DNA from: a virus
Direction: 5' to 3' (one strand)
IMG/VR virus record: IMGVR_UViG_3300017769_000046
Coordinates: 1-35,399 of that record
Length of the DNA stretch: 35,399 nucleotides
Position numbers and translations under genes: made by a program
Notes under the pieces: model-generated
What the model saw: the letters and a program-made list of their open reading frames with translations, nothing else
Told to the model about the DNA's origin: nothing
The model's database searches: none
In this document: piece by piece, positions 18,136 to 23,015 of the stretch
Layout of the letters: each line of letters opens with the position of its first letter
How positions within the stretch are numbered: the stretch's first letter is position 1

Positions 18136-18411
18136 TTACCATTTTTTACACGACCAATATCTTGCCGTAAATTTATCTTTAGCTGTTGAACAACGATGTC
18201 TCGCTCTAAAAGACTTTCTACGAGCTGGCTCATTTTTACGTATGGGCATATTTGGATCGCCATAATGGATAACCTTAACTTGGTTACCTTTCTTTGCTAA
18301 AACTACAAATTTTTTGGTGTCCCTCCAACTACTTCGAGGCTTGTTGAATCCTGAGTAGGTATGACCCCTGTATTCAATGCGACCACCGCTAAGTCTTTTA
18401 ACATCTTTCAT
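18136..18411 (-). CDS. small highly basic conserved protein
   Basis: The track starts at a TTG (18447); the first ATG gives MKDVKRLSGGRIEYRGHTYSGFNKPRSSWRDTKKFVVLAKKGNQVKVIHYGD...RRKSFRARHRC...ARYWSCKKW. K/R-rich. Confidence 0.6.
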   Translation of the reverse strand: MKDVKRLSGGRIEYRGHTYSGFNKPRSSWRDTKKFVVLAKKGNQVKVIHYGDPNMPIRKNEPARRKSFRARHRCSTAKDKFTARYWSCKKW

Positions 18412-18498
18412 GGTGACAAAATAGTTACTATTTATGTTTTGATTCAATACTAAATTAAAGTATTGATTTGTAGTGATATTTTCTTTTACTTTTCACCT

Positions 18499-18885
18499 AT
18501 GGCAAAAAACGAACCATCAAAACCAGCCCTATACAGTCGAGTTAAGTCTGAGGCTAAACGCAAGTTTAAGATATTCCCTAGCGCCTACGCTTCTGCGTGG
18601 ATTGTCAAGGAATACAAAAAACGAGGTGGCACATACACAGGAACAAAGTCTTCCAAAAGAGGCGTGGCTCGATGGATGCGTGAAAAATGGACTACCCAAG
18701 ATGGATCACCTTGTGGGTCAGCCAAGTTCAAGGGCGTAAAAAAATGTCGACCTACTGTTCGTATTAGCAAGGAAACACCTGTTACTTGGAAAGAACTCAA
18801 GGCAAAAGGCAAGGCTTCTGAGGCTGTACGTGAGAAAAAGCGTGTAGGAATGGGTAAACGCACCAAAGCCATCAAAAGAGACTAA
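18499..18885 (+). CDS. small highly basic conserved protein (PSAYASAW...KKRGG motif)
   Basis: MAKNEPSKPALYSRVKSEAKRKFKIFPSAYASAWIVKEYKKRGGTY... This is the only plus-strand gene inside the late module, and it is followed by a strong plus-strand terminator. Confidence 0.65.
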   Translation: MAKNEPSKPALYSRVKSEAKRKFKIFPSAYASAWIVKEYKKRGGTYTGTKSSKRGVARWMREKWTTQDGSPCGSAKFKGVKKCRPTVRISKETPVTWKELKAKGKASEAVREKKRVGMGKRTKAIKRD

Positions 18886-18970
18886 AAAAGGTATTGTTTT
18901 TAAATAACTATGCTTTTAACTTATATTTGTTGACATGCTTTGGCTTGAGAACCTTAGCTTGTAAGAATTT

Positions 18971-19004
18971 AAAGCCTGTTTGTTAACTCAAATGGGCTTT
19001 TTTT
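18971..19004 (+). terminator. rho-independent terminator
   Basis: aaagcctgtttg / caaatgggcttt forms a 12-bp stem (two G.U pairs) with loop ttaact, followed by a T run up to 19004. It abuts the stop (19003) of the convergent terminase nuclease ORF. Confidence 0.75.
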
Positions 19005-19788
19005 ATCTAAGTACGTACATTGGGGTGTTACTACCTTTTTCATTACGCCAAATCGCATAATCTGTTGCATCCGACATATGTCCCCTGTCACCATTGTCTA
19101 TTTTTAGCCCTTTATCGTTCACGATAGAGTACATATAGTCTTTTACAACGTATTCGCACCTCGTGTTGACTAATAAACGTCTTTCGCCATTGAGTCCAGC
19201 GTAAATTACGTTGTTCACCTTGTCCACACGCACCTTTCTTCGTGGATTTTGGATGTCCAACTCGTTTTTATACAAAATATCGTTTTGTTCAAACACCTCT
19301 CGCACATAATCCCAGTCATTTTTGCCTACACGACCATAATTACCACTTTTTTGGTTGGATGTGTTGTCTCCAGCTAATAAAACCTTTGAAATACCCCATT
19401 TATTCAGTAATTCTACCGCCTTCAAGGCTTGCTCAGTAGTCAATGCCTCTTTGGAGAAGATTTCATCGAAAATAATGTACTGCTTAAGACCATTACGAGC
19501 CTTTTTAACTTGGAGCAAAGCCCAACAATGAGGAGACCTGTTGAAATCAGCACAAAGCCAGACAGGACTACCGCTATCGTAGTCAAGAGCCGTAAGATTA
19601 CCATCAGGGTAGTGATTGTATCCATCAAAGTGTTTATAAGCCTTCTTCGTAGGGTCATCTGTTTCCTCACTCATTTCGTACCCAAGCTTATACGACAGAA
19701 AGTCCATCGCTTCCTCTTGGAGTAGCCGTTGTTTACTGTGATTGGTTTCCCACAAGGGAATGTCCCATGTCTTGTCGGGTTCTCTCAT
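19003..19788 (-). CDS. terL: terminase large subunit, C-terminal nuclease half (separate ORF)
   Basis: 261 aa with acidic-residue blocks typical of the RNase-H-like terminase nuclease: VWLCADFNRSPHCWALL, LLAGDNTSNQKS, HMSDATDYAIW. Its ATG overlaps the upstream stop (ATGA). Its frame is open for only 5 codons upstream. Confidence 0.75.
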   Translation of the reverse strand: MREPDKTWDIPLWETNHSKQRLLQEEAMDFLSYKLGYEMSEETDDPTKKAYKHFDGYNHYPDGNLTALDYDSGSPVWLCADFNRSPHCWALLQVKKARNGLKQYIIFDEIFSKEALTTEQALKAVELLNKWGISKVLLAGDNTSNQKSGNYGRVGKNDWDYVREVFEQNDILYKNELDIQNPRRKVRVDKVNNVIYAGLNGERRLLVNTRCEYVVKDYMYSIVNDKGLKIDNGDRGHMSDATDYAIWRNEKGSNTPMYVLR

Positions 19789-20132
19789 GTAAAAAGTATA
19801 GATTTAAAGGCACTTTCTGCGTCAACAAAAAAGATGGGGACACCCATTTCGGCACCCTCCTCTACTATAGATAATGCACCTGATCGGTGTTCGTGTAATG
19901 TTCTAAGGTCGTAAGTGAGTATGCCCCATCTGTTCTTTATGCAATCATCAAGTAAAGGGTTTAGCTTTTTAGAATAAGAACCAGTCTGAATTATTTCCCA
20001 ACACTGCTTTATTACTTTAGCATCAATCATTTCTATAAAGGAGTTTATATCGTCCTTCATAGTATCTACTTCAGACTGCTCAATATCTGTGCTAAATCTA
20101 GCGTATATGACTACTTTAGGTTGTTCCATCAT
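19785..20132 (-). CDS. serine-recombinase (resolvase) catalytic-domain-like protein without a DNA-binding domain
   Basis: 115 aa. VVIYARFSTDIEQ resembles the resolvase YARVST..Q active-site strand. ...TGSYSKKLNPLLDDC... and GILTYDLRTLHEHRSGALSIVEEGAEMGVPIFFVD parallel SG...RP.L..L and D.vlv..LDRL.R......l...gv.i by eye. Confidence 0.5.
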   Translation of the reverse strand: MMEQPKVVIYARFSTDIEQSEVDTMKDDINSFIEMIDAKVIKQCWEIIQTGSYSKKLNPLLDDCIKNRWGILTYDLRTLHEHRSGALSIVEEGAEMGVPIFFVDAESAFKSILFT

Positions 20133-20622
20133 ATTTTACCATGTTTCTAAGTTCTTTAGCTAGTACTCTTGGTATATCATACCATTCACCCTTATGATGA
20201 TTATTCTTTATTATTTTATGAATTTGTTTTTCATGCTTGTATATGTGGTTGCTTTTAACAGACCAAATTAATGTTATATCAAAAGGATTACCTGTCTTCA
20301 TTTTAGATATTCTTCTTTTCATAAGACCAGAAGTTACCCCAAACTTATAATAACCCTGACACTCTACGCAATACACGATTCCTTTTTTAACATCACAAAA
20401 TTCTTTAAAGTTTTCTAAATCCTCTTTGGTGATTATCTCACTCTTATTAGAAATCAATATCTCACAAGCCCTGATAAAATTTTTACGCCACCTTCTTTTA
20501 GTATTGCCATGCATATATTTTGTTATAGAATCATTTAAATCAATAAGATCATAACCCTTTGGTCTAAGATTTTTTATAAGACTAAGACATATGCCAACAT
20601 TAATAGATATATTTTTTTCCAT
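20116..20622 (-). CDS. T5orf172 / GIY-YIG-superfamily domain protein (free-standing homing-endonuclease-like)
   Basis: GIVYCVECQGYYKFGVTSGLMKRRISKMKTGNPFDITLIWSVKSNHIYKHEKQIHKIIKNNHHKGEWYDI matches the YKIG.T...  R...  tg.P......E..lH......GEWF pattern. It is markedly more AT-rich than the flanking terminase ORFs. Confidence 0.7.
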   Translation of the reverse strand: MEKNISINVGICLSLIKNLRPKGYDLIDLNDSITKYMHGNTKRRWRKNFIRACEILISNKSEIITKEDLENFKEFCDVKKGIVYCVECQGYYKFGVTSGLMKRRISKMKTGNPFDITLIWSVKSNHIYKHEKQIHKIIKNNHHKGEWYDIPRVLAKELRNMVKYDGTT

Positions 20623-20633
20623 TACAAACTAAA

Positions 20634-21437
20634 TTATTTCAAATTGTTCCATTCTTCTACTTTGTAGCCTGTTTTATCTTCCTTTACCGATATTTGCAGT
20701 ACGTTAAAGATGCCCGACTTCATTAGCCGACTATTAGCATCATTCGGATGATAGGGCGTACAAACGCTTAAAACAATACCTTTATCGTGAACACGCTTGA
20801 TCCATGTATTCGACACCTTGTTCCACACCGTTTCCCTGCGAGCCGTAGATATTCTATCTTCATCATTGCACACATCATCAAGGATCAAGACACCAGCTCG
20901 CTGTCCTGTGGTTTGGGTCAGTACTGCATATGCTTCATAGGTAGGGTTACCTGTTCGGTTACGGCTCTTCACAATGATGCGCTGCGTTGAGCCTGTATCT
21001 GTCCTATCAAATTCAACAGGGCTAAAGTTATGTTCCCTGCACCAGTATCGGTACATATCACTCATGAACAACGCACGTAGCGATAATATCCTCTTAGCAG
21101 AGATGCCCCCATCAGCCGACACAATCAACGTTTCTAGTTCGTGCTTTCGAGTGGTCATGTAGGCAGACAAACCAATAGGCACTTGTTGAGACTTACCAGT
21201 GTTATAAGGCGCCCTAATTAGACCATTCAGACGAGCACTTTTAGACAAGGCTTCTTGCTCCCAGTCATAAACCCCTTTCTGCATAGCGAGGTGTATTTGG
21301 GCTTGGGTCACTTTACGACCATCTTGATCGGCTAAACAGTTCTCAATAAATGAGTTCCTGAGGTCTAATGAGTCAGGGGGTGGATCATGTCCAACCACAT
21401 TAACCAATAAATCAGACCAATTAGCTTTTTGGGGCAT
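20634..21437 (-). CDS. terL: terminase large subunit, N-terminal ATPase half (separate ORF)
   Basis: 267 aa. Walker-A-like RAPYNTGKSQ, Walker-B-like GVLILDDV and a coupling-type motif SVCTPYHP. It ends with a stop 12 nt before the inserted ORF. Confidence 0.75.
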   Translation of the reverse strand: MPQKANWSDLLVNVVGHDPPPDSLDLRNSFIENCLADQDGRKVTQAQIHLAMQKGVYDWEQEALSKSARLNGLIRAPYNTGKSQQVPIGLSAYMTTRKHELETLIVSADGGISAKRILSLRALFMSDMYRYWCREHNFSPVEFDRTDTGSTQRIIVKSRNRTGNPTYEAYAVLTQTTGQRAGVLILDDVCNDEDRISTARRETVWNKVSNTWIKRVHDKGIVLSVCTPYHPNDANSRLMKSGIFNVLQISVKEDKTGYKVEEWNNLK

Positions 21438-21558
21438 ACGTTATCTTACAAAATTTACATTGCTTCTCACACTTCCTTTTACCAGAAATCACGCCCAAAC
21501 ACTTAAAAGGTTCTTTCTTTCTCCAAAGCCTAGCAAGGAAGTTCAGGTTAAACTTCAT
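21421..21558 (-). CDS. small Cys-rich ORF (45 aa), not in the track
   Basis: Hand translation: MKFNLNFLARLWRKKEPFKCLGVISGKRKCEKQCKFCKITYAPKS. It fills the 110-nt gap, with its ATG overlapping the upstream stop region and its stop overlapping the terL start. Confidence 0.35.
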   Translation of the reverse strand: MKFNLNFLARLWRKKEPFKCLGVISGKRKCEKQCKFCKITYAPKS

Positions 21559-22054
21559 AGGTATATGCCTTCTCCTTGAGCTCCATCAAGTCCTCCTTCG
21601 GTATATATACAAAGATATCCTTTCTATTGTTTCTACCCATTAGCGTATAAGCAATGGTACTGAAACCATATTTTTTATGGAGGCTATTGCCTCGTAACAC
21701 GCCTTTCTTATTGTTTATCTTGGGAATCATCTTTTTCTGTACGTATCCATACAGAGCCTTATTGTCCACGACCACAAACTCTCCATGAAACTGAAAGGCT
21801 ATTTTATCTGCACCATGGGGGCTACACCATCCAGACTTACCCTGAACGTTCCTAAACTCTATTAGGATATACCCCTTACTGTGGCACCCCTTAATGCCCT
21901 TGACATCATAGGTCACATCCCCAATACGAGCGTCAATGTGATTGTAGTCATCTTGCTTCGTGCCTTTTACGGCTCCTGTAATCTTGCAGAATAACTCTTC
22001 CGACTTCTGAGCCTCAGCGTACTGTCTTTTTTGTATTGCTTTAAATGAGTTCAT
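21548..22054 (-). CDS. PD-(D/E)XK-like nuclease-fold protein (putative)
   Basis: 168 aa. HIDARIGDVTYDVKGIKG...GYILIEF...GWC...ADKIAF has the shape of a D...(D/E)xK core. It lies between the small- and large-terminase genes. Confidence 0.4.
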   Translation of the reverse strand: MNSFKAIQKRQYAEAQKSEELFCKITGAVKGTKQDDYNHIDARIGDVTYDVKGIKGCHSKGYILIEFRNVQGKSGWCSPHGADKIAFQFHGEFVVVDNKALYGYVQKKMIPKINNKKGVLRGNSLHKKYGFSTIAYTLMGRNNRKDIFVYIPKEDLMELKEKAYTYEV

Positions 22055-22622
22055 AGTCTACCTCTATCGCCTCCATTCTTTGTGCAAACTCCTTCAGTTG
22101 ATCCATGTTTAGGAAGTCCTGAAGAACCTGCAACGTTTGTTCTCGCACCTTGTTTTTATACTCTATGATAATCGTTGGTTCATTACTCAACTCTTTACGA
22201 ACGTCATGTAAGTCTTTCATGATTTTACTCAAGTCCTTTGGGTGAATCGCATCCAAGTCTGGGTGATTCTCAAGCAGCGTAGTAATCTTTATCAGCATAA
22301 ACTCAACCTTAGCCGACATCTTCTCTTTTCGCTCCTCTAGCGTCCCAATGAACTGAAGAGTGTTACGGTACTGCTCAAGGTCTTTTAAGAGTTCTGGGTC
22401 AAATTTTGAGCGCTGCACGACATCCTTTGCTTGCTCACGTATCTTTATCTCTTCATCAAGGTTTGATCGTTGGTTTTTCCAATTGTAAATGGTTTGCCTT
22501 GACACACCCCATTTATCAGCCACTTTTGACACGTTACCCATCACCTTTATTTCCCTAAGGATGGCTACTTTCTCTTCAGGACTAAATTCGTTATTTCCAA
22601 CCTCTTTTTTTGACATACTCAA
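22041..22622 (-). CDS. small terminase-like protein: N-terminal HTH plus coiled coil (putative)
   Basis: 193 aa. HTH: VSKVADKWGVSRQTIYNWKNQ. It sits at the head of the packaging module. Confidence 0.5.
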   Translation of the reverse strand: MSMSKKEVGNNEFSPEEKVAILREIKVMGNVSKVADKWGVSRQTIYNWKNQRSNLDEEIKIREQAKDVVQRSKFDPELLKDLEQYRNTLQFIGTLEERKEKMSAKVEFMLIKITTLLENHPDLDAIHPKDLSKIMKDLHDVRKELSNEPTIIIEYKNKVREQTLQVLQDFLNMDQLKEFAQRMEAIEVDYELI

Positions 22623-22764
22623 CTACTGATTCTATGCGATTAAATATATAATTAGGCAACTTATCAGACATAGAGGGGATCTCATAAAGACTCATTATGA
22701 TAATCTTTATCTCCTCCGCTAACTCTTCCTTGGTTAATATGTTTTTCTTTTTATGCCAACCCAT
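22591..22764 (-). CDS. hypothetical protein, first gene of the late operon
   Basis: The track starts at a TTG (22773); the first ATG gives MGWHKKKNILTKEELAEEIK... Confidence 0.4.
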   Translation of the reverse strand: MGWHKKKNILTKEELAEEIKIIIMSLYEIPSMSDKLPNYIFNRIESVVEYVKKRGWK

Positions 22765-22922
22765 TTTACACAAACTTAATAAAATTGACAGACATTACTT
22801 ATAAATGGCGAGAATAGCAAATATTGACACTTTTTCATGGATTTTTGCTTTTCGCGAAAGGGAGGGTATTTAGCCCGTAGGCAAGTATATTTTAATATAT
22901 AAGCCCCTGTATAATATAATTT

Positions 22923-22965
22923 TCTAGTTCTATTATATAATATAAGAATCTAGTTTTATTATATA
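22923..22965. repeat. 17-bp direct repeat pair TCTAGTT(C/T)TATTATATA upstream of the late operon
   Basis: Copies at 22923-22939 and 22949-22965 with 1 mismatch, spaced 26 bp start to start, in the intergenic region. Confidence 0.7.
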
Positions 22966-22981
22966 GCTTTAAAGTATAGAC

Positions 22982-23015
22982 AAAAAAATAGCCCTGCATA
23001 TAATGCAAGGCTATA
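22982..23015 (-). terminator. rho-independent terminator closing the AT-rich cassette
   Basis: The minus strand reads ATAGCCTTGCAT-tat-ATGCAGGGCTAT (12-bp stem, one G.U pair) followed by TTTTTTT. Confidence 0.8.

Follow-up and report, generated by a model that had tools for sequence, protein, structure and literature searches.

Why does a gene encoding the bare catalytic domain of a serine recombinase lie between the two halves of a phage's large terminase, and what could such a protein do there? The question is raised by a virus record of 35,399 bp (the window), complete and bounded by terminal repeats, whose packaging genes are arranged on the minus strand in the order probable small terminase (TerS), a 168-aa ORF, the ATPase half of the large terminase (TerL-N), a T5orf172/MUG113 gene, the recombinase-like gene (RES), and the nuclease half of the large terminase (TerL-C) (Table 1). 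Close relatives of the window include marine metagenome contigs, such as those from TARA; no relatives of TerL-N were found in GTDB genomes, so that neither a host nor a prophage was identified. We are confident that RES is a stand-alone protein of the serine-recombinase fold that has lost its catalytic motif, encoded by an old, selected and mostly vertically inherited gene that resides in the gap of a two-piece TerL independently of T5orf172. Its function can be assigned less firmly, and several readings are weighed here.

Table 1. Features of the packaging region of the window.
Feature	Positions	Strand	Basis or remarks
RES, serine-recombinase catalytic-domain-only gene, catalytically dead by family residues	19785..20132	-	115 aa; likely start 20129, 114 aa
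TerL-N, ATPase half of split large terminase, Walker A + B, 267 aa	20634..21437	-	PHROG 38 E 3e-20
TerL-C, end of ATPase region + RNase H-like nuclease half, 261 aa, own ATG	19003..19788	-	PHROG 10250
Putative homing endonuclease, T5orf172/MUG113 (GIY-YIG-like); inserted later, and not in all alleles, at TerL-N/RES overlap	20116..20622	-	GC 28.6%
9-mer ATGGAACAA, first copy, at TerL-N end; single overlap site in empty allele	20644..20652	-	comparison with L002
9-mer ATGGAACAA, second copy, provides RES start codon	20121..20129	-	comparison with L002
Probable small terminase (TerS), N-terminal HTH, same operon, upstream	22041..22622	-	weak PHROG terminase small subunit matches (E 1e-4), HTH Pfams, conserved position

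The original prediction described RES as a 115-aa ORF with a serine-recombinase catalytic fold, and both statements hold, although the second Met (ATG at 20129) is where homologs begin, giving a 114-aa product. RES matches the Pfam Resolvase profile (PF00239) above its curated cut-off (E 3.3e-5; 24.5 bits vs. 23.3) over profile positions 1-101 of 145; 20 of 24 family members match the profile at E≤0.1. An AlphaFold model based on a 35-row alignment (pLDDT 93.3) was compared with 48,161 PDB representatives; the top 12 matches were all serine recombinases, with structural matches to 3guv (Z 13.1, rmsd 2.5 over 109 residues), Bxb1 (Z 12.8), TP901-1 (Z 12.3) and IS1535 TnpA (Z 11.6). The predicted absence of an E-helix extension and of a helix-turn-helix (HTH) domain was likewise confirmed: after the last strand the model contains only a 10-residue helix, aligned up to residue 112 of 183 in Tn3 resolvase, and both model and alignment lack most of helix E and any HTH/DNA-binding domain. 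RES descends from the resolvase/IS607 TnpA superfamily, and its source was probably a captured resolvase or IS607-type gene.

The catalytic center of serine recombinases is the DRLxR motif (10.1101/2022.11.22.517515). Using a residue register taken from the TP901-1 alignment and counts over 35 homolog rows, we found this motif in no RES protein (0/35): both arginines are lost in 35/35, the DRLxR positions being occupied by K/N/T/S, then T/S, then P/E/Q/K/H; the window sequence had already raised the suspicion that some catalytic arginines were substituted. The nucleophile column of the first motif (R-x-S) contains Ser in only 10/35 rows, the remainder having G (7), P (7), T (6), N (4) or D (1), while the first-motif Arg is retained in 29/35. 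The window allele retains both R12 and S14; this is not evidence of activity, because the family, judged by its residues, looks catalytically dead. Conservation is concentrated in the hydrophobic core, together with Y10, R12, Q19, E46 and T78, and net charge is negative in 32 of the 35 proteins. RES thus lacks both the catalytic residues and the domain architecture of a working recombinase, yet is built like the catalytic domain of a resolvase or IS607 TnpA.

RES had also been placed inside a mobile insertion and coupled to the endonuclease gene, possibly as a partner subunit; neither claim survived comparison with relatives. A census of all loci fetched yielded 126 distinct junctions (related sequences rather than independent events), comprising 81 with a split terminase and RES, 28 with a split terminase, T5orf172 and RES, 13 with a split terminase lacking RES, and four with a one-chain terminase. 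The check for co-occurrence therefore gave an asymmetric answer: every T5orf172 junction contains RES (28/28), but T5orf172 is missing at 81/109 RES junctions. Among 80 viral relatives plus the window, 57 carry TerL-N, RES and TerL-C alone, 18 have T5orf172 before RES, and six are cut by contig ends. The closest RES allele (L002, 97% amino acid identity) has no T5orf172 gene, and its RES start overlaps the end of TerL-N by 19 nt; the 9-mer ATGGAACAA from this overlap flanks the T5orf172 gene on both sides in the window. A passenger of a homing cassette should be absent from the empty allele, whereas L002 and 80 other junctions have RES in the absence of T5orf172. The T5orf172 gene, with a lower GC content than its neighbors (28.6% vs. 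37-44%), entered later, as an AT-rich insertion before RES, which lies outside the homing cassette. T5orf172 alleles at five other loci (L004, L016, L025, L161, L175) share the nuclease domain with the window but have a Cys-rich N-terminus, different from that in the window, and different junctions, suggesting at least two acquisitions at the same site.

That RES is a partner of the endonuclease, or an active recombinase, is accordingly a highly improbable reading, largely refuted by distribution and residue counts. RES adjoins T5orf172 here and accompanies it at every junction, and the window allele keeps the first Arg and Ser; however, T5orf172 is dispensed with at most RES junctions, the second-motif arginines are lost throughout the family and the Ser in 25/35 rows, and RES is the sole resolvase-family match in the complete genome.

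The constant partner of RES is instead the split terminase. TerL-N aligns to residues 2-254, and TerL-C to residues 261-507, of the one-chain relative P0022; the chain is broken within a short segment that separates two predicted strands, ∼3 residues having been gained and none lost. The terminase is divided at this same short loop in the window and in L133-L144, L200-L219, L226 and L233-L237, while L082-L086 and L224 encode one-chain terminases (506-522 aa, 47-49% identity). The split is ancient and extends across the family. We saw no fusion of TerL with RES: the longer relatives of TerL-N are the 506-522 aa one-chain terminases, and a fusion by programmed frameshifting is unlikely, given the variable junctions and the intervening genes. 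A split-intein ‘fractured gene’ was rejected, as terminase sequence runs to the end of one half and resumes at the start of the other, leaving no space for intein parts, and so was a group I intron (no Rfam match at E≤1 over 18800-23000).

At all 13 split junctions lacking RES, found in the L200-L219, L233-L237 clade and in L226, unrelated small genes occupy the gap, so RES does not occur wherever the terminase is split. RES was not found elsewhere in these partial contigs (22-39% complete, flanks ≤19 kb), where a distant copy is possible, nor was it detected near one-chain relatives in flanks of up to 19 kb. The gap of the RES-less clade holds a conserved, beta-rich-looking 258-260 aa ORF and a 60-79 aa ORF (L203:395-1174, L210:1540-2319, L211, L213, L215, L219, L233, L236). 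The latter, the most frequent occupant, was rejected as a shrunken RES (profile-profile probability 0.4%; nothing in Atlas). This variety of ORFs argues that the gap is a general cargo slot. In the TerL tree, which has a distant root, one-chain forms cluster with the RES-less split L226 (96/99), which hints that a split terminase may have re-fused into one chain; AU tests reject neither a single split clade (p 0.19) nor a single RES clade (p 0.26).

A profile search of 1.84 billion representatives returned 14 matches, with distant members at 22-32% identity; the sole long match was a spurious repeat protein. At this divergence the fold and hydrophobic core are kept, and family members are 110-139 aa in length, apart from one 60-aa piece. 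In all eight matches whose contigs were inspected, RES is flanked by TerL-N and TerL-C halves sharing 46-79% identity with those of the window, and every RES locus with flanks has this arrangement, even where TerL identity is 46-55%. No broken copies occur among the RES junctions (109/109 intact). Median pairwise dN/dS is 0.11-0.33 for RES, compared with 0.02-0.03 for TerL-N and 0.05-0.06 for TerL-C, and shows no sign of positive selection on RES. The proposal that RES is a remnant of a larger element may therefore describe its origin, but not its present state: an intact reading frame, purifying dN/dS and a fold kept at 22-32% identity all argue against decay.

RES and TerL tree distances, which are not independent, correlate with rho 0.83 overall and 0.69 among 12 deep representatives, and the two trees are broadly congruent at depth, with RES mostly inherited together with TerL. 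The RES tree is 2.8 times as long, and rho is 0.41 for RES with TerL-N, 0.34 with TerL-C and 0.36 with TerS, vs. 0.66 for TerL-N with TerL-C. Loci L064 and L065 have identical TerL-N and only two differences in TerL-C, but RES alleles that are 52% identical; DNA identity drops from 95-100% to 55-68% across RES, and the divergent tract is RES only. Further small genes stand between RES and one terminase half in L139-L144.

These data bear on two main readings of RES function. We tentatively prefer the first, in which RES would have been exapted as a non-enzymatic accessory, produced along with the packaging motor. Overlaps between the genes suggest that RES is translationally coupled to both TerL-N and TerL-C, with production expected late in infection; it might then act by binding other proteins, either helping the packaging module to assemble or regulating it. 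Protein binding would be the most likely mode of action, since RES has no active site, has no DNA-binding domain and is mostly acidic. Retention throughout the RES lineages and the place of the gene in the operon favor such a role, as do intact frames, constraint, tree correlation, the overlaps, acidic charge and the failure to detect RES beside one-chain relatives. Against it count the RES-less split junctions, the L064/L065 allele swap, the weak tracking of neighbors and the intervening genes. RES cannot be universal or allele-specific glue, because split junctions without it exist and 52%-identical alleles swap between near-identical halves; binding would more plausibly involve a conserved patch than an allele-specific interface, and sister lineages manage without RES. 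On this comparative evidence, RES may be a lineage-specific terminase accessory that is dispensable elsewhere, and it is in this restricted sense that the original suggestion of an adaptor for the split terminase can stand; as a general adaptor it fails. A stronger form, which we consider unlikely, would make RES a third, recombinase-derived motor subunit, the motor comprising TerS, TerL-N, TerL-C and a RES that clamps or regulates the TerL chains, with one-chain relatives possibly re-fused after RES loss.

In the second reading, the main rival and a possible one though not the likeliest, RES would be expressed late from a cargo slot whose conserved flanks would serve recombination, and would bind a host or satellite protein, with no packaging chemistry; its target might be a terminase-sensing immune receptor, or a serine recombinase for which RES serves as a decoy. 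A host- or competitor-facing role of this sort is favored by the swapping of alleles and by the gap behaving as a cargo slot: RES alleles exchange as exact cassettes (L064/L065), RES evolves ∼2.8 times faster than TerL and tracks its neighbors weakly, and the gap carries varied genes in relatives. Large terminases are recognized by Avs receptors, and a third partner masking the terminase has been suggested (PMC11564622). RES is, however, kept in every sampled member of the RES lineages, and pairwise dN/dS gives no sign of positive selection. Counter-defense genes are usually patchy in distribution. The decoy variant is further weakened because RES lacks most of helix E, which forms the interface through which small serine recombinases dimerize (PMC6188088).

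Two further readings would ask less of RES, or something different. The ATGA overlap between RES and the nuclease half of the terminase, originally read as translational coupling, is real, and start/stop codon overlaps are kept in close relatives. The reading frame might be kept mainly for ribosome re-initiation at TerL-C, as a translational bridge or near-neutral passenger whose protein does little. Weaker constraint on RES than on TerL is consistent with this, as is a shrunken, 92-aa RES (L207:1724-2002) that overlaps both terminase halves in the same way. We nonetheless consider it quite unlikely, given a RES dN/dS far below 1, a core and a length of 110-139 aa kept at 22-32% identity, and the persistence of RES in L140-L144, where it does not abut TerL-C. 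Still less probable is a non-cutting nucleic-acid or synapse factor, in which RES would borrow a DNA-binding domain in trans, such as the HTH of TerS, and pair packaging sites. The first-motif Arg (29/35) and the HTH-bearing TerS in the same operon are compatible with this reading, and IS607 TnpA cores use helices B and D rather than helix E to dimerize (PMC6188088); but RES is mostly acidic, and its covariation with TerS (rho 0.36) is not special.

RES has no PADLOC match; in the open-access literature, no description of the TerL-N/RES/TerL-C arrangement was found, and searches for split terminases returned nothing relevant. RES shares with PF00239 recombinases (3guv, Bxb1 9iu2, TP901-1 3bvp, IS607-family TnpA 6dgb/6dgc, Tn3, gamma-delta) the alpha/beta catalytic fold (Z 10-13) and a recognizable first motif (Y-x-R); in contrast to them it has no DRLxR arginines, no conserved nucleophile, an acidic charge, a helix E that breaks off after ∼10 residues and no DNA-binding domain, and its place in a packaging operon is fixed. 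The closest precedent for this kind of protein is poxvirus OPG61 (F16L in vaccinia), a serine recombinase described as inactivated and of unknown function (bioRxiv 10.1101/2022.11.22.517515). OPG61 proteins were among the structural matches of the RES model, and they too represent a serine-recombinase fold kept by a virus after loss of the DRLxR center. OPG61/F16L is, however, a 231-aa protein of a eukaryotic virus, whereas RES is a bare 114-aa domain inside a phage terminase gene, and the two are presumably independent exaptations. For the setting, the closest precedent is phage Aeh1, whose nrdA is split by the mobE endonuclease gene, with essential tails added (PMC3045599). There, as in the split TerL, an essential gene yields two chains without splicing, and an endonuclease gene lies between them in some alleles; in TerL, however, the endonuclease arrived later, only ∼3 residues have been added to the halves in comparison with P0022, and it is a dead recombinase domain that constantly occupies the gap.

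RES thus provides an example from phages of a mobile-element enzyme retained after its chemistry was lost, here as a bare catalytic fold fixed inside an essential gene, and a large group of uncultured aquatic phages seems to have re-employed an old mobile-element enzyme in a non-cutting job. In such phages, neither lysogeny nor recombination follows from a ‘resolvase’ annotation. One-chain TerL, split TerL without RES, split TerL with RES, and split TerL with RES and endonuclease form a natural series, suited to testing whether the ATPase and nuclease halves need to be one chain and what keeps splits viable.

Several minor features of the region were also recorded. The 168-aa ORF between TerS and TerL-N (21548-22054) resembles a PD-(D/E)xK nuclease by eye, has no Pfam match and is found in some relatives only, at 50-93% identity. 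A terminator-like hairpin (19838-19857, minus strand) closely precedes TerL-C, toward the 3′ end of RES, and may be due to chance (five sites found in the scan vs. 2.7 expected). Between TerL-C and the gene in the portal position are a DUF5754-like basic protein gene (18136-18447, minus strand) and a DUF5872 gene (18463-18885, plus strand; E 1e-25), the latter tail-to-tail with TerL-C in most close relatives.
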